Shown here: positions 25,122-39,888 of the stretch, piece by piece
How positions within the stretch are numbered: position 1 is the first letter of the stretch
Layout of the letters: every line of letters starts with the position of its first letter
From: SAR202 cluster bacterium
Lineage (GTDB): Bacteria; Chloroflexota; Dehalococcoidia; Lucifugimonadales; UBA826
NCBI GenBank assembly: GCA_008373095.1
Contig: RQOP01000005.1
Span: 1 to 63,145, forward strand
Length of the DNA stretch: 63,145 nt
Reading direction: 5' to 3'
The notes under the pieces: model-generated
Seen by the model: the letters and a program-made list of their open reading frames with translations, nothing else
Databases searched by the model: none
What the model was told of the DNA's origin: nothing
Position numbers and translations under genes: made by a program

Positions 25122-25583
25122 TCAAATATGGGCTAGAATGGCCTTATAATCTGGAATAATCCCAGGATGCTCACCCATCCAGCTATAAACCAGTATCCCG
25201 TCCTGACCTGCAATAAAGACCGCACGATTAGAGCTCCTGTAGTTGGGAAGACCAGCAAGGCCTGTAAAAGAAACTCCAAAAGCATCAATACAATCGAGAT
25301 TGTAATCGCTAATCAAGTCATAACTTATACCGTTCTGATTTGCCCAGGCATTCAATGCAAATGGGGAGTCAGCAGAAATCCCGACCACTTTAACGTTGGA
25401 ATGATTAAATTTATCCAACATATCGCCAATCTGACATAACTCATCAGTACAAACATCTGTAAAAGCACCAGGGAAAAAGGCAAATAGTGTTTTTGTTCCA
25501 ATAAATTCTTTCGAATTTCTTTCCTTATGATGACTGTCAAAAAAAGAGAATTCTGGAATCTTATTTCCTACTTGCAACGGCAT
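25122..25583 (-). CDS. Peroxiredoxin (AhpE/PrxQ-like)
   Basis: FPGAFTDVC (PxxxTxxC) with a second Cys five residues later; GISADS, LISD, NRAVFI. Confidence 0.9.
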   Translation of the reverse strand: MPLQVGNKIPEFSFFDSHHKERNSKEFIGTKTLFAFFPGAFTDVCTDELCQIGDMLDKFNHSNVKVVGISADSPFALNAWANQNGISYDLISDYNLDCIDAFGVSFTGLAGLPNYRSSNRAVFIAGQDGILVYSWMGEHPGIIPDYKAILAHI

Positions 25584-25623: not shown

Positions 25624-25953
25624 TTATAAAACGTTGTAATACCAAAGAATATATATATTAACTGCAGTACACAGGACACCGACCAAAACGGACAATCCAA
25701 TAGGCACCAAGCTATGGAAACCCCATTTGTTTGACATAGATGCCGATTGACAAACAAACAGAAATGTCGCGATCACCCCAAGACCCCACATTGACATTGC
25801 TACCCACAGTAGAATTTGCGTATTGGAGTGGAACCAAGAATGACCTTCTATAAGGTTATCTCTGTAATAAAAACTTGCGTGCAAAAAAATGGAAGACGCA
25901 ATAAAAGGAAAACAACCAATAAGACCTTTTGTAATTGATTTGTCTTTTACCAC
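25624..25953 (-). CDS. Hypothetical membrane protein
   Basis: 109-aa ORF with three hydrophobic segments; no recognised motif. Confidence 0.45.
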   Translation of the reverse strand: MVKDKSITKGLIGCFPFIASSIFLHASFYYRDNLIEGHSWFHSNTQILLWVAMSMWGLGVIATFLFVCQSASMSNKWGFHSLVPIGLSVLVGVLCTAVNIYILWYYNVL

Positions 25954-26093
25954 TTCTGCAGGAATATTTATCGCAGCACCTACTATTTTCTGTAAGTTTT
26001 TCTATTGTGAAGCCTACAAATTTCTGTCGTTTCTTTGGCTGTGTGTTACCTTTTACTGAGAAGACCCTATTTTCCCAGAAGAGTTATAAAAGT

Positions 26094-26669
26094 TTGAACT
26101 ATCTCATCATATCAGCCATTTGGGCGATCACATCTTATTTCATTGGAACCGTATCAATTGGAGATTGCATAGCTAAATTTAAAAAAGTAGATATTCGCTC
26201 ACGCGGCACAGGTAATCCCGGGGCTTCGAATATATATGCGGAAATCGGACCTGTATATGGAGTATCTGTCTTCTTTATTGATATCGCGAAAGGCTTAATC
26301 ATCACCCTCCCCGTTGTTTTGCTGGAATACCCAATCTGGATTGCAACTATTGGGATTATATTTTTCCTTCTCGGACATATGGTCATAAATCCATGGGGTA
26401 AACCTGGTGGTATTGGTATGGCTACTACCATGGGGGCAGGTATAGTTCTTCTTCCTATGGGAGCTTTAATAGCTGTTATCCCCGCCTTCCTGATACTAGT
26501 TATCACTAGGAGGCCATCCTATACAGGAGTTTTCGCATTTATTGCTACGATAATTGCTGGCTGGTTAGTCCATTTAGACCTTTTAGCAACCACCTCTGTA
26601 CTCATATTAGCTGGAGCAGTATTGGTTAAATTTCAATTCCAATATCGAGACCTAGAAACCCACAAATGA
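26094..26669 (+). CDS. plsY: Glycerol-3-phosphate acyltransferase PlsY family (start probably TTG 26094)
   Basis: DIRSRGTGNPGASN, IDIAKG, LGH..PW..GGIGMATTMG. Confidence 0.85.
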   Translation: MNYLIISAIWAITSYFIGTVSIGDCIAKFKKVDIRSRGTGNPGASNIYAEIGPVYGVSVFFIDIAKGLIITLPVVLLEYPIWIATIGIIFFLLGHMVINPWGKPGGIGMATTMGAGIVLLPMGALIAVIPAFLILVITRRPSYTGVFAFIATIIAGWLVHLDLLATTSVLILAGAVLVKFQFQYRDLETHK

Positions 26670-27180: not shown

Positions 27181-28071
27181 TCATTTTGAAAATGACATTA
27201 AACTATTAACTGATGTCCCGAGCGCTTCAGCCAGTTTAAATAGTGCAGCCATAGTTAAATTTTGCTTACCGTTCTCTACCAAGCTTATATATGCTCTATC
27301 CACTCCTGCGAGGGTAGCTAATTCACCTTGATTTAGTCCCTTTGACCTTCGTATTTCCAAAACTTTCCCTCCAATTCCAGAAAGCATCTCCTGCAAGGAT
27401 AGATTTCCGGACCCAATCCCCATTGCCTCGTGTAAAACAGTTAGCCCTGTCGCAGAGTTATCAACGATTGCAGCGCCACCAACTTGATCATTAAACCCCT
27501 TAAAGGCCGGTCCTCCCAAGATAATGTACGGAGGGTTTTCTATGGACTCTATGATATTCACCGAGGACTCTACGCTAGGAATGTTAGTAGGAAGAACTAC
27601 TGACAAAGCAACTACATCCACCTCTATTTCTGATAGATATTTAGCAAGGTCTTCTCCCGGAGTATCAACCCCAATATATTCAACATCCCACCCGTCTAGA
27701 AAAAGCAGATTTGCAAACATTTTTGCGCCCATCCAGTGGTTTTCTCCCGAAGGAGAGGTCACAAGAGCACGGAGACCGTTATTAGATAGTCTCATGGAAT
27801 TTTCAACGACCATATTTATCAAGCTGTCAACGATTTGGCTGGCATGATGCTCATGAGCGATAGTAATCCTCCCTTCATGCCATAATTCCCCTATCTCTAC
27901 CATCGCTGGAGTGATTACTGAATTATAAATAGCCACTGGAGTGCAGTTGTATCTCAAAGCCTCATCTATGACAGCAACACTCCCCGTCCGATCCACAGCG
28001 GTCAAATTATTTAACAATCTACCCTTGAAACGATTTAGCAGAACGAAATCATCACTCTTACGACTCGTCAT
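27181..28071 (-). CDS. Cobalamin-binding (CarH/LitR photoreceptor-type) regulator with C-terminal XRE helix-turn-helix
   Basis: WHEGRITIAHEH = W-x9-EH; GENHWMG = ExHxxG; IGVDTP, VALSV, ILGG of the B12 Rossmann domain; C-terminal IRRSKGLNQGELATLAGVDRAYISLVENGKQN..LFKLAEALG = HTH_XRE. ATG 28071 overlaps the upstream stop. Confidence 0.9.
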   Translation of the reverse strand: MTSRKSDDFVLLNRFKGRLLNNLTAVDRTGSVAVIDEALRYNCTPVAIYNSVITPAMVEIGELWHEGRITIAHEHHASQIVDSLINMVVENSMRLSNNGLRALVTSPSGENHWMGAKMFANLLFLDGWDVEYIGVDTPGEDLAKYLSEIEVDVVALSVVLPTNIPSVESSVNIIESIENPPYIILGGPAFKGFNDQVGGAAIVDNSATGLTVLHEAMGIGSGNLSLQEMLSGIGGKVLEIRRSKGLNQGELATLAGVDRAYISLVENGKQNLTMAALFKLAEALGTSVNSLMSFSK

Positions 28072-29518
28072 ATTCACTACCCCCAAAACGCATTTGAATA
28101 ACTTTTCTTCTGTAGGAAAATATCCTTATCAACATATTTTTGATCAAATATTTGTGAACAACTCTTCCTATAACCCAACCAGGCACCCTGTAAAAAACTT
28201 TGTCTTCCATCCGACAATTTGAATCCCCGTCAGCCACGATGCGATGCTGATGCCACCAAAGACTATATGGTCCTTTTTTTTGGAAATCTATAAATACTTC
28301 ATCCGGTGACCACTTCACTATCTCCGTTCTCCACTTCATCGGAAGAATTCCAAGTTTGATTTTGTATTCAAATTCAGAGCCTTCAATTATCTCAGGTGGA
28401 GACTCTGTTATATGAAATCCCATCCATTTCGGAGTTGCCAATCCCAAATTAAGAGGAGAGGAAAAGAAGTTAAATGCAGCCTCAGAATTAACCGCAAGCC
28501 TCACGGAAGTTTCAATTCTATAGTCGGCCTGAGAAAGCTTCTTTGAATATTTCAGAGAAGTATCAAAGGTCTCTTTATTTGAATCGACTTTAACAACACT
28601 TACTTTTTCTGGTGTACATTCTTCAGTGAGAGCATTTTCCAGTTCGTCATACTTGAACTTGAAGTTCCTTTGTAGCAAAGCTTCTGGTAGAGCGTTCTGA
28701 CTGTTGGTTAGCACCTTCTCTCCCTCTGCAAAAACCAATTTCAAGCAGATGGAAGGTAATCCAATAACAATTTTTGCTCCCAATATCTTAGCCAAACAGT
28801 TAGAAAAAGGCTTACTCCTGACTGGATTGGGAGCAGTACAATTTAAGGGCCCTGATATACCATCATCGTTGATTGCGAGATCGATAATCCTCAAAAGATC
28901 AAAATAATGAATCCAAGGGACCCATTGGCGCCCATCTCCCACATAACTACCAATTCCCATCTCAAAAGGAAAAGACAACTGATTTAAAAATCCACTTTCT
29001 CTTCCAAGGACTACCCCCAGCCGCAACGTACAGACCCTAGTACCAAAATTTTGAGCCTCCAAAGCTGCCTTTTCCCAAGAATCACACAACTCGGAAAGGT
29101 AACCTTGGCCAATTCCGGACTCTTCAGTGATTTTTTCATCGCCTCTATCGCCATAGTAGCCAACAGCACTGGCTGAAATTAGAACAGCTGGTGGAAGTTC
29201 ACAGTTTTCCATAATCGAGACAAGTCGCTCTGTCACACCCACCCTACTGTCGTAAAATTCTCTCTTTTTTGAATCCGACCACCTCACTGGCGCCAAAGGG
29301 CGTCCAGTCAAATTAACAATGACATCTGCATCCTCAAAAGCACTTGCCAAGTCATCATCAGATTGTCCAAACGCGAGAATGCTGACACCTGCACCCAGTT
29401 GCTCTGCAGCCTTTTCAGGATTCCTCACGATAGCCGTCACAGCATGACCTTTACCTCGTAGAAATGAAACTAACTCACTTCCAATAAATCCCGTAGCACC
29501 CGCGATAATTACATTCAT
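28058..29518 (-). CDS. TIGR01777-family NAD-dependent epimerase fused to C-terminal SRPBCC/cyclase-like domain
   Basis: AGATGFIG, VNLTG, ISASAVGYYG, LRLGVVL, WVPWIH, NCTAP; C-terminal FFSSPLNL..TP, KWRTEI..FIDFQKKGPYSLWWHQH. Confidence 0.9.
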   Translation of the reverse strand: MNVIIAGATGFIGSELVSFLRGKGHAVTAIVRNPEKAAEQLGAGVSILAFGQSDDDLASAFEDADVIVNLTGRPLAPVRWSDSKKREFYDSRVGVTERLVSIMENCELPPAVLISASAVGYYGDRGDEKITEESGIGQGYLSELCDSWEKAALEAQNFGTRVCTLRLGVVLGRESGFLNQLSFPFEMGIGSYVGDGRQWVPWIHYFDLLRIIDLAINDDGISGPLNCTAPNPVRSKPFSNCLAKILGAKIVIGLPSICLKLVFAEGEKVLTNSQNALPEALLQRNFKFKYDELENALTEECTPEKVSVVKVDSNKETFDTSLKYSKKLSQADYRIETSVRLAVNSEAAFNFFSSPLNLGLATPKWMGFHITESPPEIIEGSEFEYKIKLGILPMKWRTEIVKWSPDEVFIDFQKKGPYSLWWHQHRIVADGDSNCRMEDKVFYRVPGWVIGRVVHKYLIKNMLIRIFSYRRKVIQMRFGGSEYDES

Positions 29519-29590
29519 CAGTGATAGGTTCCCTGAGCATCTCAATACACAAAACGTAAGAGTTACTTAATGCACTTTTTAAACTATTTC

Positions 29591-29619
29591 TTGTACTATA
29601 ACACAATAATGTGTATTAT
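29591..29619 (+). promoter_or_regulatory. Sigma70-type promoter of the lipid-modification operon
   Basis: TTGTAC, 17 nt, TATTAT; palindrome ATAAT-GTGT-ATTAT (29606-29619) overlaps the -10. Confidence 0.5.
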
Positions 29620-29658
29620 GGAACATGTGGTCTCAAAAAATTTAGGAGTCTCTTGAGT

Positions 29659-30183
29659 ATGACAAATGTCTTAGTATTTTTCCTCGTCAACCTAGTAGGG
29701 GGGGTTGCTGTTTTAGGTTCATACGTTGTCGGGCTTTACATTTATCCTGACTTCAGAAATGCCTTGTGGGGGGGAGTTGCGGGGAGTTGGAAATCCCTTT
29801 TCACTGTTTCTATGTTTTTCGCCGCAGCAGGATACCTAATATTCTGTTATTCAATGACAATTTCTGGCGCAGCGGATAAATCATCGTTTTTGGGTGGGCA
29901 CACTTTTTCCATACTTGCTGCATTTTTCTTGTTTTCGGCTTCAATCTGGATGCCAGCAACGCTGAAATATCTTGCGACCGACGATAATTTATGGTGGATA
30001 TTATCAGTTATTTCTCTATGGATCACTGCTGCTTCCTTGTGTTTGCTAACAGTGTCTTTTGGCCTATCTAACTACGATGGTATTGGAACATTACAATTTT
30101 CATTAACATTAGTGGGAATTATTTGGATAACATTCCATTGCCTTGTATTTGACGCCATTATCTGGGTGACCAAGTTCCATTAG
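29659..30183 (+). CDS. Hypothetical multi-pass membrane protein
   Basis: AGGAG RBS 10 nt before ATG 29659; five hydrophobic segments; LWGGV motif. Confidence 0.75.
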   Translation: MTNVLVFFLVNLVGGVAVLGSYVVGLYIYPDFRNALWGGVAGSWKSLFTVSMFFAAAGYLIFCYSMTISGAADKSSFLGGHTFSILAAFFLFSASIWMPATLKYLATDDNLWWILSVISLWITAASLCLLTVSFGLSNYDGIGTLQFSLTLVGIIWITFHCLVFDAIIWVTKFH

Positions 30184-30217: not shown

Positions 30218-31303
30218 ATGGATCCAACGTATAAGTCAAAGATGACAACCTATGTAAACGAGCAGATACCAAAATTAAAAACAGTAAATAATGACGACCT
30301 GGAGTCAATGTTTGAAAATTTCTCCCCTGACCAGATAGTTGAAACAAGTGGGCTTACCGCAGAAGAAGTCGTGGATTCATTTAGGCTGTCACTAATAACA
30401 GAATCACTTACCGAGCAATATTCAGAAACTTACAAATTGGGAGCCAAAATGTTTGGTGCCGAATGGCTCAATGATTATGTAGTTGGTTTTTGGGAACCAG
30501 ATGAAAATGGGCATGCAGACCCATTTAAAAACATACTCTTGGATTTCGGAGTGGATCAGAAAGTGATCACCGATGAAATAAATGAAGCGAAGCACACTAC
30601 AGATTATAAAATACATCATGAGGCGGGGTTCTCACCGATAGCTTTAACCACATATGGGATGATACAGGAGTGCATTACCGACTACTGGTATGAATTGCAA
30701 AGAGATTTTTTCCCAAAGTCCAGTAACACAAACAAAGTAATCAGCAAAGTCAAAGGCAGAGAAGCCCTCCACACGGTGCAGTTTAGAGATCTAACCGCAT
30801 TTCAACTAGAGGCGGACCCTTCCTTGCTGCCCGAAATCATCCATTCCACAATAAATTTTTCGATGCCCTCAAACCACATACCAGTTGTGCAGGACATAGA
30901 GGCCAAGACTCAAGAATGGTTACCTAAAATGGACGGAGATGTAACTGAATTATTGAGGCGCATAATATTTCATATAAACGGTTCTCTAAATGACAAAACC
31001 CGTCTAGGACAACTTCTTACAGAATACGCATCTGCCAGTGAGAGTAGATTTTTGTCTCTAGTTCCTAACCATGTTCTCTCTGGTGCGATATCACACGTCA
31101 AAGGTGGTTATGGGCTAGTTGGTGAAATAATTCTCGAACAACTTGGACTCACTGCTAGTGAGCCAGATATGCCTAAAGATTTTAATGAATCAATCCAATT
31201 CAAAATTAAGTCAATACTGAAGCGATGGGCCATTAAACGAATGGACTTGGAAGGATTACTGCATTCAAACAATCTAATAGCTTCCACACAACAAAATGAC
31301 TGA
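30218..31303 (+). CDS. Ferritin-like di-iron protein, acyl-ACP desaturase-like
   Basis: WEPDENGH, YGMIQECIT and GREALH align with the WTAEENRH / FQERAT / DEKRH ligand pattern of soluble desaturases. Confidence 0.7.
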   Translation: MDPTYKSKMTTYVNEQIPKLKTVNNDDLESMFENFSPDQIVETSGLTAEEVVDSFRLSLITESLTEQYSETYKLGAKMFGAEWLNDYVVGFWEPDENGHADPFKNILLDFGVDQKVITDEINEAKHTTDYKIHHEAGFSPIALTTYGMIQECITDYWYELQRDFFPKSSNTNKVISKVKGREALHTVQFRDLTAFQLEADPSLLPEIIHSTINFSMPSNHIPVVQDIEAKTQEWLPKMDGDVTELLRRIIFHINGSLNDKTRLGQLLTEYASASESRFLSLVPNHVLSGAISHVKGGYGLVGEIILEQLGLTASEPDMPKDFNESIQFKIKSILKRWAIKRMDLEGLLHSNNLIASTQQND

Positions 31304-32489
31304 ATTGACAGAAAGTCTAGGCAAAAGATTGTCTCCTCTAATTCTACCTAGATTTAGAGGAATTGGCGTTTTAGTTGAAACCCCCGACGGTGCAGTGCAC
31401 CGATTGGACAATCATGACCCAGAAAATGTTCACGCTATCACCATAAAAAAATGGAGTTTCTTCTATGACCTGCTAGTAGGATATGACCTCGGGTTTGCAG
31501 AGTCCTACATAAATGAAAAATGGGAATGCACTAACCTACCAGATCTTTTCAAGCATCTATCAAAATCAGCACCTGACAACGCTATATCTAGATTATCAAA
31601 ATATTTCCCTAAAAAAATTAAATCTAGAATCTGGCAACGAGTCAGGTCATCAAATACTATTAAATGGGCAAAAAGAAACATAGAAGAACATTACGATCTA
31701 AGCAATGAGTTTTTTAGCTCCTTTTTAGACCCGTCTATGACATATTCATCTGGAATATATGACTCCCCTGATGAAGACCTATCAGTAGCTCAAAACAGAA
31801 AATTAGAAACCTTACTTGAAAATAGCGCAATCAATGAGGGTGACCAGATATTAGATATCGGATGTGGTTGGGGAAGTTTAGTGTTTAAAGCAGCCTCTGA
31901 ATACAACTGCGGGGTTGCAGGGGTTACCTTATCCAGAAACCAATATAAATACACTTCAAGCCTTTTGAAGAACCACAAGCTTTCCAATAAGACAAAAATA
32001 ATGTTGATGGATTACAGGGAAATAGAAAATAAGTTTGACCATATTTTTTCTATTGAAATGCTTGAAGCCGTTGGGCACAAAGGAATAAATGAATTCTTCA
32101 AAAAATGTGCTCAGATTTTAAACAAAAATGGCACCATACAGGTGCAAGTAATTACTATTCCTGACGAACATTACGATTCATACAGAAAAAACTGTGACTT
32201 CATACAAAAATACATATTCCCCGGCGGTATGCTCCCTTCATTAGGAATAATCCAAAAATCTGCTCAAGAAAATGGTTTTGAAATATTAAAAATGAGGTCT
32301 CTGGGAAGCGATTATGTCAAAACCTTAAGAGCGTGGAGAAATAACTTATATTCGAATCGCCAAAATTGGAAGGACATTGGTTTTGACAATTCCGACTACA
32401 GAAAATTTGAATACTACTTCAGCTATTGTGAAGGTGGATTTGACTCAGGACATATAGACAACTACCAAATATCATTTAAGCGTCTTTAG
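31296..32489 (+). CDS. CFA-synthase-family SAM methyltransferase (UfaM-like)
   Basis: LGFAESYI, HYDLSNEFF, MTYSS, LDIGCGWGS, SIEMLEAVG, FIQKYIFPGG, YFSYCEGGF. Confidence 0.92.
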   Translation: MTELTESLGKRLSPLILPRFRGIGVLVETPDGAVHRLDNHDPENVHAITIKKWSFFYDLLVGYDLGFAESYINEKWECTNLPDLFKHLSKSAPDNAISRLSKYFPKKIKSRIWQRVRSSNTIKWAKRNIEEHYDLSNEFFSSFLDPSMTYSSGIYDSPDEDLSVAQNRKLETLLENSAINEGDQILDIGCGWGSLVFKAASEYNCGVAGVTLSRNQYKYTSSLLKNHKLSNKTKIMLMDYREIENKFDHIFSIEMLEAVGHKGINEFFKKCAQILNKNGTIQVQVITIPDEHYDSYRKNCDFIQKYIFPGGMLPSLGIIQKSAQENGFEILKMRSLGSDYVKTLRAWRNNLYSNRQNWKDIGFDNSDYRKFEYYFSYCEGGFDSGHIDNYQISFKRL

Positions 32490-32491
32490 TT

Positions 32492-33526
32492 ATGTGGTAC
32501 GAATCATTAGCTTACAGCGGATTAATACCAGACATTTTAATAAGAGCTCTCATCCGATACAAATTGGATAAATATGAAGAATACGTAGGAAATCTTTCTC
32601 CAAATTCAATACGCCAAATCAAAGATGAATTCATCACTATAGCCTCCCAGGGGCCGATAGCAATCGAAACACAAGCAGCCAATTCTCAACATTACGAATT
32701 CCCCACTACATTTTATTCTTCCATTCTTGGTCCCACACTAAAGTACAGTGGATCTATGTGGAATTCAGATGCAAATAATCTGGAAACAGCAGACTTAGAA
32801 ACCTTGAAAATCTACACTTCACGGGCGCAAATACAAAACGGACAATCAGTGCTCGATATCGGGTGCGGATGGGGATCATTGTCGTTGTATATTGGCAAAA
32901 CATTCAATGACTGCAAGGTGACAGCCTTAACAAACTCAACGACACAACAAGAATATTTAAATGCTCAGATACAAAAGCACAACCTGGTCAACGTAAGTGT
33001 TACCAAAATTAACATTAACGACTTTCAACCAGTCGATAAATACGACCGGGCTTTATCTATAGAAATGTTTGAACACACAAGAAACACAAAACTACTCATG
33101 GAAAAGATTAATGGTTGGTTGAACCATGAAGGAAAATTGTTTATACAAGTTTTCTCCCATTCCACGTACCCGCAGTTCTTTGACGACTATTCAGACTCTT
33201 GGATGTCACGCAATTTTTTCAGTGGGGGGATGATGCCATATTCCGGATTCCATCACGAAATTTCCAAGTGTTTAAACCTAGCAGAAATATGGGAAGAATC
33301 TGGTATTAACTACCATAGGACTTTGGAAGCATGGCTTAATAATTTGGATTCCTCAAAAAAAGAATTGGTTGGGTCATTGGAAATACCAGATCAATCCACC
33401 TCACCCAAATTAGCAATAAACAAGTTTCGCATATTTCTTCTGTTTTGCTCAGAATTATTCAACCATAATCAGGGTATGTCCTGGAAAATAATGAATTATC
33501 TTTTTACCAAACAGGAGACTCGCTAA
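32492..33526 (+). CDS. Second CFA/coclaurine-N-methyltransferase-like SAM methyltransferase
   Basis: AANSQHYE..FY..LG..LKYS, LDIGCGWGSL, SIEMFEH, WMSRNFFSGG. Confidence 0.88.
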   Translation: MWYESLAYSGLIPDILIRALIRYKLDKYEEYVGNLSPNSIRQIKDEFITIASQGPIAIETQAANSQHYEFPTTFYSSILGPTLKYSGSMWNSDANNLETADLETLKIYTSRAQIQNGQSVLDIGCGWGSLSLYIGKTFNDCKVTALTNSTTQQEYLNAQIQKHNLVNVSVTKININDFQPVDKYDRALSIEMFEHTRNTKLLMEKINGWLNHEGKLFIQVFSHSTYPQFFDDYSDSWMSRNFFSGGMMPYSGFHHEISKCLNLAEIWEESGINYHRTLEAWLNNLDSSKKELVGSLEIPDQSTSPKLAINKFRIFLLFCSELFNHNQGMSWKIMNYLFTKQETR

Positions 33527-33528
33527 AG

Positions 33529-34785
33529 TTGGAAATCGGCATTGTTGGCAGCGGTATTTCAGGTATATCTGCAGCTTACCACCTTCAAAACCAACATAAA
33601 ATCACTCTTTTTGAAAGAGAAGACAGTTTAGGAGGCCATACTAACAGCATCGCTGTCTCCGATGATGAGGGCCAATCCTTCAACATAGATACAGGATTCA
33701 TAGTATTCAATGACAGAAACTATAAACATTTTTCAAAATTCATAGAAGAATTGGAGGTACCTACAGTGGAGACAGACATGTCTTTCTCTTATACAGATTC
33801 TTCTAAATCCATTGGATACGCTGGAACTTCGAATGGCTTGTTTCCTACCGTTAAATCTTTCTTAAATCCGAGACATACATGGCGTCTGTGGAACATCTAT
33901 AAATACTCCAAATTATTAGACGCTAACTCCGATAAATTTAGTGACCGCAGTATCTCTATATATGATGCTTTGAAGGGATTCCAATGTCCTGATGATGTGA
34001 TTGACTCATACTTTACACCGATAGCATCCGCTATTTGGTCTTGCAATCAAAAAGATTCCCAAAAAATACCTGCCAACGCGTACGTAAATTTCTTTCAGAA
34101 TCACGGTTTATTATCCATATCAGAAAGACCTGCTTGGTTCACAATAAAAGGCGGTAGCAAACAATACCTGAAAAAATTTGAAGAAACCTTTAAGGGAAAT
34201 ATTAAAAAAAGGAACAAAGTAGTTTCTATTATTGAAAATTCCTCAAAAGTGGAGGTTCGTTGCCTAAACGAACCAGCTATTTCATTTGACGCAGTTATCT
34301 TAGCCACTCATGCAGATATCTCGGCGAAAATACATACCAATACTCCTGACTCCAAAATGGAGGTGCTGAATCAATATAAATATTCAGATAATTTTGCAGT
34401 TCTTCATAAGGATGTCACTTATATGCCCTCAAATGAAAAAGTGTGGGCTTCCTGGAACGTGAAGAGGCAAAATCAAGCAAACCAAATATCATCTTTTGAA
34501 GTCACTTACAATATGAATCGGCTGCAACGGCTTACATCAAAAACAAACTTTCTTGTCACACTAAACCCGACTCAGCCTCCAGACCCTAACATGACTTTAT
34601 ACTCTACGAAGTACACGCATCCAATTCTTTCTTTTGACTGTTCTGACAACGAAAAACATTTCGACATATTGAATTCAACAGGTAGGGTTTTCTTTTGTGG
34701 GGCATATTTAGGTTATGGCTTTCATGAAGATGGGTTCGTATCTGGCATGAAAGCAGCTCAATCAATCAACAAATTGCCAGGGTAA
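33529..34785 (+). CDS. FAD-dependent amine-oxidase-fold protein (UfaD/RSP_1091-like)
   Basis: GSGISG, GGHTN, IDTGFIVFNDRNY, WASWN, TYNMNRLQ, CGAYLGYGFHEDG. Confidence 0.9.
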   Translation: MEIGIVGSGISGISAAYHLQNQHKITLFEREDSLGGHTNSIAVSDDEGQSFNIDTGFIVFNDRNYKHFSKFIEELEVPTVETDMSFSYTDSSKSIGYAGTSNGLFPTVKSFLNPRHTWRLWNIYKYSKLLDANSDKFSDRSISIYDALKGFQCPDDVIDSYFTPIASAIWSCNQKDSQKIPANAYVNFFQNHGLLSISERPAWFTIKGGSKQYLKKFEETFKGNIKKRNKVVSIIENSSKVEVRCLNEPAISFDAVILATHADISAKIHTNTPDSKMEVLNQYKYSDNFAVLHKDVTYMPSNEKVWASWNVKRQNQANQISSFEVTYNMNRLQRLTSKTNFLVTLNPTQPPDPNMTLYSTKYTHPILSFDCSDNEKHFDILNSTGRVFFCGAYLGYGFHEDGFVSGMKAAQSINKLPG

Positions 34786-34789
34786 TAAA

Positions 34790-35596
34790 TTGAGATCCTA
34801 TATTGTGTCTGGAATTTTAGATCATCAAAGGTACGGTCCGTCTTCACATTCATTCAGATTTAAACACACCATGTTGATGTTAAACACTGACCACCTAGAA
34901 TCCCCAAAAAAGCTATGTTCACTTATTTCTATTGAGAAAACAGGTGTGTTATCGATCAATTTTAAAAATATGATCGATGCAACAAACAAACCTATCGGAG
35001 AAAAAATTCAACGTCTCTTTAAACTACAAGGCAATCAATCCAAATCTTCTAACTCTTTCGCAGTCACTACCCCTTCAGTTCTCGGATACAGCTTCAACCC
35101 AGCATCCTTCTACTTTGTAATAAATGATGAAGATAAGATAGAAAATTGTGCGGTAGAAGTTCATAACACTTTCAATGAATCACACCTTTATATATTAAAT
35201 TCACCTACAGCAGGTTCATCTAAATCAAGTAAATATACCCATGAAAAACAATTCCATGTGTCACCTTTTATAGGAAGGGAAGGCAATTATGAATTCGAAT
35301 TTGAATTAACAGCAACTTATCTGAAGATTAACATAACCCTTTTCCACAACAATCAGCCAATAATATCTACAAGATACCTCGGTGAATTGATACCTTTGAC
35401 CAGGAAAAATCTATTCTTGAACATTAGGCAATTGATATTTACTGTCCTACTAACAGAGTCCAGAATATTGAAACAAGCATATAAATTGCATTTTCGGAAA
35501 AAACTTCCTCTTTTCAATAAACCAATCCCCTTAGCTATGACAAAAATTGCTCTTTCTAGGGGTTTTATATCCAAACTGAAGATACCTTTCGTATGA
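34790..35596 (+). CDS. DUF1365 protein (UfaO/RSP_1090-like)
   Basis: H.RYGP..HSF, P.VLGYSFNPASFY, EVHNTF.E.H.Y, KQFHVSPF. Confidence 0.9.
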   Translation: MRSYIVSGILDHQRYGPSSHSFRFKHTMLMLNTDHLESPKKLCSLISIEKTGVLSINFKNMIDATNKPIGEKIQRLFKLQGNQSKSSNSFAVTTPSVLGYSFNPASFYFVINDEDKIENCAVEVHNTFNESHLYILNSPTAGSSKSSKYTHEKQFHVSPFIGREGNYEFEFELTATYLKINITLFHNNQPIISTRYLGELIPLTRKNLFLNIRQLIFTVLLTESRILKQAYKLHFRKKLPLFNKPIPLAMTKIALSRGFISKLKIPFV

Positions 35597-36354
35597 AAGT
35601 GAATCCAATTAAGTTAACTACTAAATACATTTTCGTATTTCTGATAGTTATTGGTTTAAGTTCCATATTTATCAAAACTGCATCGGCGCACATACCTTTC
35701 ATATCGAACGATAACCACAACAGTGCTCAAAGTCCCTTAGTTGTTTATGACATAGCTGTATCAAAGGTTATCTATCAAAAATTGACCGATGATTCACCAG
35801 AATCATGGATATCTTTCAAAGCCGATCAAGGCGAAGTTCTGTATTTCAATTTAGGAGTACCTCTTTTGGAAGAACTAAAAGATTTCAGACCCTCCATAGG
35901 ACTTCTAACCCCATCATCTCAAACGCTTTCTGTAAATTCCTTAAAAGAATCCGAGGTATTTCCGACACTTGATATTACCGACCCAAAAACCTTTTATGAA
36001 CCCTTCACAAAGACGAATTCTTGGACCTTTACGGAACACAAATTCGATATTCCAACAACTGGCAACTATTCCCTAGTCACCTACTCTCCCAAAAAACAAG
36101 TGGGAAAAGTCTGGGTTTCTATTGGTAAAGAAGAAAGATTTGGCCCTAGTGACTGGATCACTATCCCAGCCAAGATACCGGAAATCCGTAAATTCCATTC
36201 CTCAAACATAAAACCGTCAATAGATGAATCCCAAAATAGCAACGGCACAAGCTATTGGGTGTTCTTAACTGGTGGAATAGGCATATTTTGCCTAATGCTA
36301 TTTTTAATAAGAAGGTTTTTCATCAAGACTTTTCGTACCTTAAAGAAAAGTTAA
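35593..36354 (+). CDS. Exported hypothetical protein with C-terminal TM anchor
   Basis: Signal peptide ending ASA-HIP; FYEPFT motif; C-terminal TM. Confidence 0.75.
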   Translation: MKVNPIKLTTKYIFVFLIVIGLSSIFIKTASAHIPFISNDNHNSAQSPLVVYDIAVSKVIYQKLTDDSPESWISFKADQGEVLYFNLGVPLLEELKDFRPSIGLLTPSSQTLSVNSLKESEVFPTLDITDPKTFYEPFTKTNSWTFTEHKFDIPTTGNYSLVTYSPKKQVGKVWVSIGKEERFGPSDWITIPAKIPEIRKFHSSNIKPSIDESQNSNGTSYWVFLTGGIGIFCLMLFLIRRFFIKTFRTLKKS

Positions 36355-36494: not shown

Positions 36495-36524
36495 TTGACA
36501 AACGTGAACACAGGCTGATAATAT
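36495..36524 (+). promoter_or_regulatory. Strong sigma70-type promoter
   Basis: TTGACA, 18 nt, TAATAT with TGn extension; followed by palindrome TGTGTT-TC-AACACA (36524-36537). Confidence 0.65.
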
Positions 36525-36757: not shown

Positions 36758-36979
36758 ATGAACAACAAAAACGAATCTAATTTAGGTGCATGGATAGATA
36801 TGGCAGAAGGCTTGTACGACTTTCTTAACCGCCGGAAAACAACTATCAACTACGACTTTAAGCAACTTTCCGTTTCTGTACCTCAAGGCACCGGCCCAGG
36901 ATCTGAAAAAGCGGAGTGGATGGTCTCCGGCATGATAAGTGTAAGCACAACAGAGAATGACGAAAATCAGACAGAATAG
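36758..36979 (+). CDS. Small conserved hypothetical protein (73 aa)
   Basis: AAGGA RBS; LYDFL.RRKTTINYDF..L.V.VP.GTGP..AEW.VSG pattern. Confidence 0.7.
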   Translation: MNNKNESNLGAWIDMAEGLYDFLNRRKTTINYDFKQLSVSVPQGTGPGSEKAEWMVSGMISVSTTENDENQTE

Positions 36980-37330: not shown

Positions 37331-38434
37331 ATGAAATTCGAGTGGGGAATATTACAAAACGAAATAGATGATGGCCATGGAGGCGTGGCCTCTTTACTTA
37401 AGCGAATGGATTCCTCACTCAAGGGAGAAGGACTTCCACTCGAAGGGTTTGAGTTTCTCAATTCAGCCCAGGAAATGCTGCGTATCACTAGAGAAATTGA
37501 AGATGCGGCCCTTATGGCGGGCCCAGACTCCACGGTTTTCGTAGGTTTTCAAAATATAGATAAACTTCAGAATGAGTACGATAGATATCGAGATCTGATT
37601 TCCAATGGAGTTACTATTCACGCATTTGGTACAGGGGATTCAGATTCATGGGCTATGGATGCCTGTACGTCCTGGAATCCTTTGTCCAAATCAACCTCCA
37701 AGGTGGAAAACCAGTGGATGCTGGTTGCAAAAGACCCAACCCCAATAGCGTTTATAGGATGGGAAGTTTCAAGGGGAATATTTGGGGAAGGTAAATTATC
37801 AGACCCGGGCAAGCTATTTGAAGGCTTTGCCTCCTCTGATTCAAGAATAGTAGATAGTTTAATTCAGCATTTAGAAGCAACAAGAATCGAAAATTCCCAA
37901 AAAAATGACTCATCCTCAAAAAACCTCAAAGAGAAGACATCTCCCTACAGCAAAATAATGCTGGTTACTGAGGATAAATCAAATACAAGCGATGGAGGGA
38001 AAATACTCGGCTATGAAGACTCTCTGGTCAACTTTTGCCAGGAAAATGGAGCTGAAGCAATACTCTATGATATTTCAGCATGCTCTTACTTCGTTAAACC
38101 CGTTCCCGCTGAATCGGATAATTTATTGAAAAATGTAATTGACACGGAAACAGTAGAGAACCTAGGCCGGCTTAACCTCGCTGCACAAGGGAGAGTTTTT
38201 GAAAATGCCGGTTTGAAAACTTCTTATTTGTTACCGGAAAAAAATGGGTTTAAACATTTGATTGAAAGAGCTACCCAAGAAAAAATAGATCTTATAATCC
38301 TTGACGACTACTATAGTTCACCTAGACTGATGGATCGAATAGCGGGTAATTCCCTATCCAATATAGATCAGAGCGCTACTGTTGAGGTTATGCTTTATAA
38401 GGAATTGCAATCGCAGTCAATATCAGTAGCATGA
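37331..38434 (+). CDS. DICT sensory domain fused to USP-like C-terminal domain
   Basis: ITREIEDAA..VFVGFQNIDKL..EYDRY..L..GVTIHAFG..ENQWMLV..IAFIGWE (DICT pattern); C-terminal LIERATQEKIDLIIL (USP-like). Confidence 0.7.
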   Translation: MKFEWGILQNEIDDGHGGVASLLKRMDSSLKGEGLPLEGFEFLNSAQEMLRITREIEDAALMAGPDSTVFVGFQNIDKLQNEYDRYRDLISNGVTIHAFGTGDSDSWAMDACTSWNPLSKSTSKVENQWMLVAKDPTPIAFIGWEVSRGIFGEGKLSDPGKLFEGFASSDSRIVDSLIQHLEATRIENSQKNDSSSKNLKEKTSPYSKIMLVTEDKSNTSDGGKILGYEDSLVNFCQENGAEAILYDISACSYFVKPVPAESDNLLKNVIDTETVENLGRLNLAAQGRVFENAGLKTSYLLPEKNGFKHLIERATQEKIDLIILDDYYSSPRLMDRIAGNSLSNIDQSATVEVMLYKELQSQSISVA

Positions 38435-38454: not shown

Positions 38455-39888
38455 ATGAATATATTAATCGCAGGTGCCAGCGGATATGTAGGCACACTAC
38501 TAATAAAAAAGCTGTCAAATGAAAATCACAACATCTCATGTGTTTCTAGAAATCCTGAGATGATTGAGAGCAGGTTTCCTCAGTTGAACTTGAAAACTCA
38601 CAAAGGAGACCTGCTTTCTCTGAAAGAAAATCATAAAGCTTTCGATAACATCGATGTCGCCTACTATCTTGTACATTCTCTTAGTGCCGGTAAGGACTTC
38701 CCTCTCCAGGAACTTAAATGTGCAGAAAACTTTATCAAAGCAGCAAAAGCGGCCGGAATACCCAAAGTCATCTATCTAGGAGGATTGGCTAACGAGCAAT
38801 CTCAACTTTCCAGGCATTTAAAGAGCAGGCTTGAAGTGGGAGCAATGCTTAGATCCACAGAAGTAGTGTGTGTTGAACTTCAAGCTTCGGTGATAATCGG
38901 TTCTGGCAGTCTCTCATACGAAATAATGAAAAATTTAGTAGAAAGACTTCCAATTATGCTAACTCCTAAATGGGTCTCATCTCTGTCTCAGCCCATTTGG
39001 ATCGAAGATGCCCTTGAATATCTCACACAGTCAGCCACAGTGGAATTCAAAAGGAGTACTGTAATTCAAATAGGAGGACCAAACCAGGTTACTTACAAAC
39101 AATTAATGCAGATATATGCAAATCTGAGAAACCTAAAAAGAATCATGATATCCGTACCTGTGTTAACTCCAAACCTATCAAGCAAATGGCTAGGTTTAGT
39201 TACTCCAGTCTATGCAAGGGTCGGTAAAAAACTAATCGAAAGCTTGAAGAATGACAGCATAGTCACTAAACCAGTCGACAGAGATTTATTTAGCATAATT
39301 CCTTCTAGCATTGAGACTGCCATCGCAAACACTATGAAAGTCGAACAAGATGGCCCCAGTGAATCACGTTGGTACAATTCAGTTTCATCCTCCACTAAAG
39401 TAATAGATAAAGAAGATGACACGTCATATAGATACTTGTTAAGAGATGTAAGGGAAATTATAGTGGCCGTAGGACCCATGGAGGCCTTTAAACCAATAAA
39501 CCAAATCGGTGGCTCCAATGGATGGTACTATGCGAATTTTTTATGGAAAATAAGAGGGTGGATTGATTTACTAGCAGGGGGGGTTGGTATACGTCGAACA
39601 AGAGTAAATCAACACACCTATGTTATTGGCGATACCCTCGACTGGTGGAGAATTTCTGACCACATACCAAATGAACTCGTAATTCTAGATGCAGAAATGA
39701 AACTTCCTGGAAAAGCATGGCTCAAATTCGAAATCGTTCCATCCCAAAAAGGGAGCTTGATAAGGCAGACTGCGGGAATGGAAACAAATAACTTAATGGG
39801 CCTTTTATACTGGTACGGACTATTCCCACTGCATTCCATCATATTCAGAGGAATGCTCAACGCAATCGGGAAAAGAGCCTCAGCTTAG
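38455..39888 (+). CDS. NAD(P)-binding SDR/epimerase with DUF2867 (YbjT-like)
   Basis: AGASGYVG, YYLVHS, IYLGGL, HLKSRLEVG, IIGSGS.SYE, GG.NGWYY..LWKIRG..D..GG, AEMKLPG.AWL. Confidence 0.9.
   Translation: MNILIAGASGYVGTLLIKKLSNENHNISCVSRNPEMIESRFPQLNLKTHKGDLLSLKENHKAFDNIDVAYYLVHSLSAGKDFPLQELKCAENFIKAAKAAGIPKVIYLGGLANEQSQLSRHLKSRLEVGAMLRSTEVVCVELQASVIIGSGSLSYEIMKNLVERLPIMLTPKWVSSLSQPIWIEDALEYLTQSATVEFKRSTVIQIGGPNQVTYKQLMQIYANLRNLKRIMISVPVLTPNLSSKWLGLVTPVYARVGKKLIESLKNDSIVTKPVDRDLFSIIPSSIETAIANTMKVEQDGPSESRWYNSVSSSTKVIDKEDDTSYRYLLRDVREIIVAVGPMEAFKPINQIGGSNGWYYANFLWKIRGWIDLLAGGVGIRRTRVNQHTYVIGDTLDWWRISDHIPNELVILDAEMKLPGKAWLKFEIVPSQKGSLIRQTAGMETNNLMGLLYWYGLFPLHSIIFRGMLNAIGKRASA

Follow-up and report, generated by a model that had tools for sequence, protein, structure and literature searches.

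The window analysed here, a stretch of 63,145 nucleotides from a SAR202 cluster bacterium (contig RQOP01000005.1 of assembly GCA_008373095.1; Chloroflexota, Dehalococcoidia, Lucifugimonadales, UBA826), contains at 30218-35596 five adjoining genes, designated X, MT1, MT2, AO and the DUF1365 gene. We regard it as reasonably probable that they belong to a self-contained operon, specific to marine SAR202/Dehalococcoidia, by which furan fatty acids with methyl groups (probably two) are made. Furan fatty acids (F-acids) scavenge radicals and singlet oxygen. To our knowledge, their biosynthesis in bacteria has been established only for two alpha-proteobacteria. A first-pass annotation of the window had described five overlapping or abutting genes, coding for a desaturase-like protein, a UfaM-like and a second methyltransferase, a UfaD-like protein and a UfaO/DUF1365 protein. 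This arrangement was borne out by the open reading frames (ORFs) and by Pfam, with an 8-bp overlap between X and MT1 and gaps of 2 bp (MT1/MT2), 2 bp (MT2/AO) and 4 bp (AO/DUF1365). The assignments hold at family level, as judged by Pfam and by the enzymes described in PMC7380195. The same annotation had placed the desaturase-like gene at the head of the operon, which had to be corrected. Seven tightly packed ORFs on the + strand were listed at 29.6-36.4 kb. A membrane-protein gene sits in front of X, which is thus not the first gene of the transcription unit, and a gene for a protein of 253 amino acids (aa) extends the 3' end. Each of the seven genes is present in a single copy in the 1.95-Mb genome (94% complete).

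In the known furan-fatty-acid pathway UfaM methylates cis-vaccenate on the phospholipid, UfaD (RSP1091) produces a methyl-diene, UfaO (RSP1090, DUF1365) closes the furan using O2, and the second methyl group is added by FufM (Lemke 2020, PMC7380195). The genes ufaD and ufaO are adjacent in R. sphaeroides and R. palustris, and furan formation is the sole established role of an AO+DUF1365 pair (PMC7380195). In the window, AO matched Amino_oxidase (PF01593) with 92 bits and NAD_binding_8 (PF13450) with 57 bits, and the DUF1365 protein matched PF07103 with 178 bits (cut-off 25). The two genes adjoin in all 26 complete loci described in the following.

The distribution of the cluster was investigated by a scan for loci with one genome per species. 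It yielded 43 loci, all from Dehalococcoidia/SAR202; the scan used two peptide patterns from a close alignment and may miss genomes of a sister clade, including the cultured Lucifugimonas. For the clade of X itself (42-95% identity), 26 of 33 species-level loci hold X, MT1, MT2, AO and the DUF1365 gene together. Six of the remaining loci are cut by contig ends, and in one (L040) the flanks are long enough but none of the other four genes is present. Of 27 informative species-level loci, 26 retain all five genes, although the proteins are only 36-65% identical. X and the MT1-MT2-AO-DUF1365 row are adjacent but convergent in three loci (L042-L044). The neighbours are often retained as well: X is immediately preceded by the membrane-protein gene in at least 16 loci, and the gene for the 253-aa protein follows the cluster in at least 13. 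A different picture was found for the sister clade (28-34% identity). Here, a single MT1-like protein of the CMAS family is encoded after the X-type gene (X') in 8 of 12 loci, and otherwise the gene stands alone. Pairs of this kind (X'-CMAS'), which lack AO and DUF1365, are widespread among other Dehalococcoidia, and some members of the sister clade are named 'acyl-ACP desaturase' by NCBI.

Within the order, 41 genomes were compared. Intact X was detected in 15, DUF1365 in 17 and both in 14 of them; for these 41 related genomes the co-occurrence (both, X only, DUF1365 only, neither: 14/1/3/23) gave a Fisher p of 2.6e-7. Stop-interrupted fragments of X were found in one genome (G004) and short remnants in two others (G001, G007). 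The patchy presence together with these remnants indicates that the cassette is accessory and that some lineages are losing it. The operon stretch was represented at 94% or more of the sampled words in 20 marine metagenome runs, which belong to at least 11 labelled studies. An assembly artefact as origin of the cluster was rejected, as it is present in at least 20 metagenome runs and in 26 species-level genomes.

Protein X was the most difficult to assign. It had no match in Pfam (E <= 10), in NCBIfam or among PDB sequences, and searching these three collections with the single sequence or with a profile gave nothing meaningful. Its homologues (42-94% identity) are annotated as hypothetical and come solely from SAR202/Dehalococcoidia metagenomes. 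Homology to desaturases was detectable only by exhaustive profile search, hhalign and fold search. Among 1.84 billion representatives the X clade comprised 99 clusters only, all from Dehalococcoidia as far as the source names show, and more distant matches of the profile pass PF03405 (FA_desaturase_2) at 24-52 bits. In the comparison by hhalign, the X clade and bona fide PF03405 proteins were aligned over 285 columns with 99.3% probability (E 3e-20).

The motif E...ExxH...E...ExxH is the signature of ferritin-like di-iron enzymes. In X it is formed by E62, D95-E96-x-G-H99, E151 and E182-A-L-H185, all of which are invariant in 20 sequences of the X clade. The six ligands E62, E96, H99, E151, E182 and H185 are invariant also in a set of 25 sequences including the sister clade and five proteins passing PF03405. 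The same six-ligand motif occurs in the soluble acyl-ACP (acyl carrier protein) desaturases of PF03405, such as the plant delta-9 stearoyl-ACP desaturase and the mycobacterial DesA1/DesA2; the spacing of the ligands is 34/55/31 in X versus 34/53/40 in bona fide members. The ligands of the di-iron site on which the first-pass annotation relied are thus present as a complete set. A structural model had been suggested there as a check: the AlphaFold2 (AF2) model of X (pLDDT 84, pTM 0.86) is all-helical, and the top nine Foldseek matches are plant acyl-ACP desaturases, but these matches are weak (E 0.015-0.16, TM about 0.4-0.46). Further matches were aldehyde-deformylating oxygenase (ADO)-like proteins, VlmB, R2lox and UndA. 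The likeness in ligands and profile contrasts with an identity to PF03405 members of only about 14-19% and with the missing match to the Pfam model. The invariant ligands, the profile homology and the weak fold matches place X, as far as its sequence tells, in the superfamily of the soluble acyl-ACP desaturases, as a strongly diverged member whose metal site is intact. Its activity as a desaturase is inferred from this. The X clade is predicted to be a new subfamily of soluble di-iron desaturases, so far found only in Dehalococcoidia.

FabA/FabZ (PF07977) was detected in none of the 41 genomes of the order, whereas the same search was positive for 9 of 14 control genomes. Membrane desaturases (PF00487) were present in 4 of the 41 genomes, and none was found in the genome of the window. 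The searches for PF07977 and PF00487 in the order revealed no other way in which a cis double bond would be formed. The genome of the window encodes two FabF-like synthases, in the neighbourhoods of which neither a fab cluster nor an alternative dehydratase was present. In the order, FabF-like synthases are present, but no hot-dog dehydratase of PF07977 was found for the dehydration step of fatty acid synthesis.

Two further observations point to X as the source of the olefin. In the sister clade the desaturase-like gene is paired with a CMAS gene, so the product of X-type enzymes would most simply be the substrate of the CMAS. Furthermore, a metagenome-assembled genome of the same genus (G003, 56% complete) contains on a contig of 14.5 kb (C20; locus L055) a furan-acid cluster of proteobacterial style, comprising DUF1295, response regulator, histidine kinase, PF00487 desaturase, AO, DUF1365, MT1-like CMAS, DUF2878, MT2-like CMAS and lipocalin. 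The non-homologous membrane desaturase in the slot of X supports the role of X as olefin supplier for the CMAS. The locus may be a contamination, because its GC content is 46% compared with about 41% for the lineage; binning contamination or transfer is the probable origin. Thus, the module is probably self-sufficient from saturated fatty acids, in a lineage without another evident route to the double bond. The first-pass annotation had reached the same view, and the lack of FabA/FabZ in 41 of 41 genomes, the sister pair and the membrane desaturase of L055 speak for it. It is limited by two relatives, described below, for which X was dispensable for keeping the rest of the operon.

MT1 and MT2 are the sole CMAS proteins of the genome and are 33% identical to each other. 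The best PDB matches of MT1 were cyclopropane fatty acid (CFA) synthases with about 165 bits, and MT1 is the orthologue of the CMAS partner in the pairs of the sister clade. Compared with Cfa of E. coli, E239 and Y317 are kept in MT1-type proteins, H266 of the bicarbonate site is replaced by Gln and H240 by Ala. Both replacements were present in every MT1-type protein examined, including the partners in the sister clade and the enzyme of the proteobacterial-style cluster L055. This is a hint that MT1 may not be a classical cyclopropane synthase. MT2 is closer to coclaurine N-methyltransferase (CNMT; 6gkv, 196 bits) than to Cfa of E. coli (6bqc, 87 bits). The FufM protein of R. palustris shares only 26% identity with UfaM (PMC7380195) and 37.9% with At4g33110/LIME1 of Arabidopsis (PMC10940516), which is annotated as putative CNMT (PMC3388832). 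As MT2 resembles CNMT, LIME1 is annotated as CNMT and FufM is similar to LIME1, MT2 may be placed in a CNMT/LIME/FufM-like subgroup; the placement is transitive, through this chain of similarities rather than by direct comparison with FufM. For a FufM-type MT2 a dimethyl furan fatty acid is predicted as product, the ring of which would be methylated by MT2.

The following sequence of reactions is proposed. With O2 and a reductant, X would introduce a cis double bond into a saturated C16 or C18 acyl chain, as its homology and context suggest. On the phospholipid, the double bond would be methylated by the UfaM-like MT1 with S-adenosylmethionine (SAM), so that a methyl-branched trans-olefin is formed. 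The UfaD-like flavoprotein AO would convert this olefin to a conjugated methyl-diene, into which the UfaO-like DUF1365 protein would insert an oxygen derived from O2, closing the furan ring. Finally, the ring would be methylated by the FufM/CNMT-like MT2 to the dimethyl form. The last four steps have been proven experimentally for alpha-proteobacterial enzymes only (Lemke 2020, PMC7380195); for SAR202 they are suggested by family membership and conserved gene linkage.

The SAR202 operon encodes the four enzyme families known from the pathway of Cereibacter (Rhodobacter) sphaeroides and Rhodopseudomonas palustris, and its flavoprotein gene adjoins the DUF1365 gene as ufaD adjoins ufaO. The SAR202 genes form one operon, whereas in R. 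palustris fufM (RPA0924) is found at a locus of its own and in R. sphaeroides there is no linkage of ufaM. They follow each other as MT-MT-D-O in SAR202, as against D-O-M in the alpha-proteobacterial system. In addition, the SAR202 operon contains genes for the putative soluble di-iron desaturase, for a membrane protein and for an extracytoplasmic protein with a membrane anchor. Unlike the hosts of the Ufa system, the host belongs to a monoderm Chloroflexota lineage without the FabA route, and the regulator encoded beside the operon is a B12/XRE protein instead of sigmaE-ChrR. In the literature library searched, no paper was found that connects furan-acid genes with SAR202. According to PMC2930330, White et al. 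2005 reported furan fatty acids for Dehalococcoides cultures. New are the putative clade-specific soluble di-iron desaturase, the one-operon arrangement with a putative FufM-type methylase and the B12/XRE context in an abundant, light-sensitive ocean lineage.

Several points weigh against a furan operon headed in its chemistry by X. The furan product in SAR202 is a prediction from the genes. The proteins of the window are, by sequence, related to UfaM, UfaD, UfaO and FufM at family level only, and in NCBIfam release 20 no model named after one of these four matched them. MT1 is indistinguishable by sequence from a cyclopropane or methylene synthase. X fails PF03405, for which it lies below the Pfam gathering threshold and for which the genome of the window gave no match at E <= 1, and its structural matches are weak (best E 0.015, TM 0.43). 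In a genome of the same genus (G002; L056, 11700-12000) X has suffered a clean internal deletion, which spared roughly 24 codons at its start, as far as the KTVN motif, and about 35 codons at its end. MT1, MT2, AO, DUF1365 and the gene for the 253-aa protein are intact there, and the rest of the operon is 75-88% identical. In another genome (G016; L057) X is absent, and the membrane-protein gene is followed directly by MT1 in an intact MT1-MT2-AO-DUF1365 row. Either X is not indispensable or these two operons are decaying. Finally, 10-methyl C16:0 and C18:0 are reported as the major fatty acids of JH545, the only cultured SAR202, for which no furan acids were reported; its fatty acids were determined by MIDI, which, as we infer, would not be expected to name furan acids.

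A pathway to 10-methyl acids is the main rival, because these acids are the major ones reported for cultured SAR202 and are also reported for other Dehalococcoidia, and we consider it rather unlikely. The cluster, or X with MT1, would then make 10-methyl or 10-methylene C16/C18 acids, with X as delta-9 desaturase, MT1 as BfaB/TmpB-like enzyme and a flavoprotein or the neighbouring short-chain dehydrogenase/reductase (SDR) reducing the methylene group; MT2 and the DUF1365 protein would have other roles. In BfaAB/TmpAB a cis-monounsaturated chain is likewise methylated by a CMAS protein, and the products, 10-methyl acids, are typical fatty acids of cultured Dehalococcoidia (Machida 2017, PMC5660069; Blitzblau 2021, PMC7791843). 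They dominate in JH545 and occur also in D. mccartyi and Tepidiforma; moreover, the X'-CMAS' pair does without AO and DUF1365, and a YfcH-type SDR is conserved beside the operon. The redox partner argues for a different product. In PMC7791843 an FAD oxidase, BfaA, and a protein similar to geranylgeranyl reductases, TmpA, are described, neither of them with a DUF1365 partner, whereas the combination of AO and DUF1365 is established for furan formation only (PMC7380195). At the locus, to which this search was confined (the rest of the genome was not searched), the redox gene is of the Amino_oxidase/NAD_binding_8 type, followed by DUF1365, and not of the BfaA/TmpA type. AO as methylene reductase of a 10-methyl pathway was rejected as primary reading, since BfaA and TmpA are described as other families. 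MT1 carries Gln at the position of H266 in Cfa, unlike the BfaB candidates, which were chosen for conservation of the bicarbonate site (PMC7791843). In addition, a core membrane-lipid pathway would hardly be limited, as this cluster is, to about 15 of 41 related genomes, nor be decaying in some of them. For the desaturase-like and CMAS pair of the sister clade, 10-methyl synthesis is the most attractive candidate function.

It was also considered that X acts later, as a di-iron oxidase or hydroxylase (oxygenation, second desaturation or head-group chemistry), on an olefin obtained elsewhere, for example by scavenging. This role is improbable. The deletion or absence of X in two otherwise intact operons, its score below the PF03405 threshold and the ADO-like proteins, VlmB, R2lox and UndA among its fold matches would be in accordance with it. 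However, the nearest relatives of X in sequence and structure are desaturases, the sister clade couples an X-type enzyme with a CMAS protein alone, a membrane desaturase occupies the same slot in L055, and no other source of unsaturated fatty acids was detected in the order. An ordinary locus for cyclopropane fatty acids or stress lipids, with neighbours that are not part of one pathway, is most improbable despite the CFA synthases as best solved relatives of MT1, given the synteny in 26 of 27 loci at 36-65% identity, the overlapping stops and starts, the RNA contigs spanning the junctions and the exchange of His266 for Gln in all MT1-type proteins.

Table 1 Features of the putative furan-fatty-acid operon and its upstream region in the window
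Feature	Position	Strand	Description
Regulator	27181-28086	-	B12-binding_2 + B12-binding + C-terminal XRE (HTH_3); assigned by Pfam, PDB and motifs
SDR	28058-29545	-	YfcH/ThyD-like (Epimerase + DUF1731); TIGR01777 301 bits, Pfam; divergent from the operon
Motif pair	29592-29625		Conserved motif, palindromic in part, present twice: TGTACTATAACACA at 29592-29605, TGTGTATTATGGAACA at 29610-29625
Membrane-protein gene	29659-30183	+	First operon gene; polytopic; alignment of homologues, RNA contigs into X
X	30218-31303	+	361 aa; divergent soluble di-iron (ferritin-like) acyl-ACP-desaturase homologue; predicted to form the cis double bond
MT1	31296-32489	+	397 aa; full-length CMAS-family SAM methyltransferase, UfaM-like or Cfa-like; PF02353 286 bits
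MT2	32492-33526	+	344 aa; short divergent CMAS of the CNMT/LIME/FufM-like subgroup; PF02353 130 bits; predicted furan-ring methylase
AO	33529-34785	+	418 aa; amine-oxidase-type FAD protein, putative UfaD-like acyl-chain desaturase; PF01593 + PF13450
DUF1365 gene	34790-35596	+	268 aa; putative UfaO-like O2-dependent furan-ring-forming enzyme; PF07103
Last operon gene	35593-36354	+	253 aa; signal peptide, extracytoplasmic beta-sandwich, C-terminal membrane anchor

The limits of the operon were defined as follows. The longest form of the membrane-protein ORF starts with GTG at 29611 (190 aa), whereas the homologues align from ATG 29659, which is preceded by AGGAG 10 nt upstream and is the likely start codon of the first gene. 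The start of the last gene overlaps the stop of the DUF1365 gene by 4 bp. The operon should end at about 36354, because a strong promoter-like site at 36495-36524 precedes a small ORF that is represented separately and very highly. Marine metatranscriptome contigs from several studies start at about 29695-29705, shortly after the motif pair, and span the junctions from the membrane-protein gene to X, from X to MT1 and from MT1 to MT2. Their depth drops downstream, and the intergenic region shows a gap; expression is reflected only poorly by contig depth, and carry-over of DNA into metatranscriptomes is possible.

For the membrane protein (190 aa) and the 253-aa protein no match was obtained in Pfam (E <= 10) or NCBIfam. 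In the alignment of homologues of the 253-aa protein, two His residues, H33 and H202, are invariant; one of them is the first residue behind the predicted cleavage site (EA|H-[IV]-P). This arrangement recalls metal sites with an N-terminal His. In a Foldseek search with the AF2 model (pLDDT 79) the matches were limited to beta-sandwich domains of a generic kind and to weak ones with the copper proteins CorA/MopE.

The regulator gene lies beside the cluster in at least 13 loci. B12-binding_2 and B12-binding were matched with 53 and 56 bits, and HTH_3 covers residues 244-293. The light-sensing domain of CarH (5c8a, 8c31) was among the best PDB matches, and the sensor motifs W..EH and ExHxxG are represented by ELWHEGRITIAHEH and ENHWMG. 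The same module of B12-binding_2 and B12-binding with both motifs is found in the photoreceptor repressors CarH/LitR, which bind adenosylcobalamin (AdoCbl), and, similar to their context, the SAR202 regulator adjoins an operon of photoprotection type. It differs in the reversed domain order, with a C-terminal helix-turn-helix (HTH) domain of the XRE type instead of the N-terminal MerR domain of CarH/LitR. The regulator is thus a candidate adenosylcobalamin light sensor, which may control the divergent promoters. All 13 relatives inspected have the motif TGTAYTATARCACA once or twice in the corresponding intergenic region, and its copies in the window overlap an extended -10-like sequence of the operon promoter; the motif pair is a candidate operator. 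Transcription of the unit would start from the promoter in front of the membrane-protein gene and would probably be controlled by the divergent B12/XRE regulator through the conserved palindromic motif. Such control would tie the synthesis to light or photo-oxidative stress.

SAR202 bacteria are globally abundant, the only cultured members are killed by light, and their lipids are almost unstudied. The microbial source of the F-acids accumulating in fish is poorly known. Three testable predictions follow from the proposed operon: its lipid product would be a dimethyl furan fatty acid, X would represent a new subfamily of soluble di-iron desaturases, and a B12-dependent light switch might serve membrane protection. 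A wider reading is tentative and in our view doubtful as a whole: a SAR202 cassette, possibly switched by light, would convert saturated chains to dimethyl furan acids, with the photoreceptor-like B12/XRE regulator, the membrane protein, the di-iron desaturase X, the UfaM-, FufM-, UfaD- and UfaO-like enzymes and the anchored extracytoplasmic His-protein as its parts, and the sister pair would be the unassigned 10-methyl route of Dehalococcoidia. If true, one of the most abundant bacterial lineages of the ocean would be a primary source of F-acids in marine food webs, and it would be suggested how the light-sensitive SAR202 cope in the euphotic zone. The sister pair of desaturase-like and CMAS genes would be a candidate genetic basis for the 10-methyl fatty acids, which are biomarkers of Dehalococcoidia.

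Some features of the surroundings may be added. The SDR gene is located upstream of the cluster in at least 13 loci and is covered by metatranscriptome contigs; it shares 29 bp with the end of the regulator gene, and its product has a C-terminal extension of about 185 residues without family assignment. Just beyond the regulator a peroxiredoxin (AhpC/TSA; 25122-25583, - strand) and the glycerol-3-phosphate acyltransferase PlsY (25935-26669, + strand) are encoded, thus an oxidative-stress gene and a phospholipid-synthesis gene beside a putative lipid-modification operon. On the other side, the small ORF, probably 36758-36979 (about 73 aa, no Pfam match), is preceded by a near-consensus promoter-like TTGACA-16-GATAAT at 36495-36522. 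It shows by far the highest metatranscriptome contig depth of the region (259-1182) and is kept downstream of the operon in several SAR202 loci with 54-75% identity. It is followed by genes for a DICT-domain protein (37331-38434) and an NmrA-like + DUF2867 protein (38455-39888), both of which are syntenic with the cluster in L016, L019-L021 and L027.

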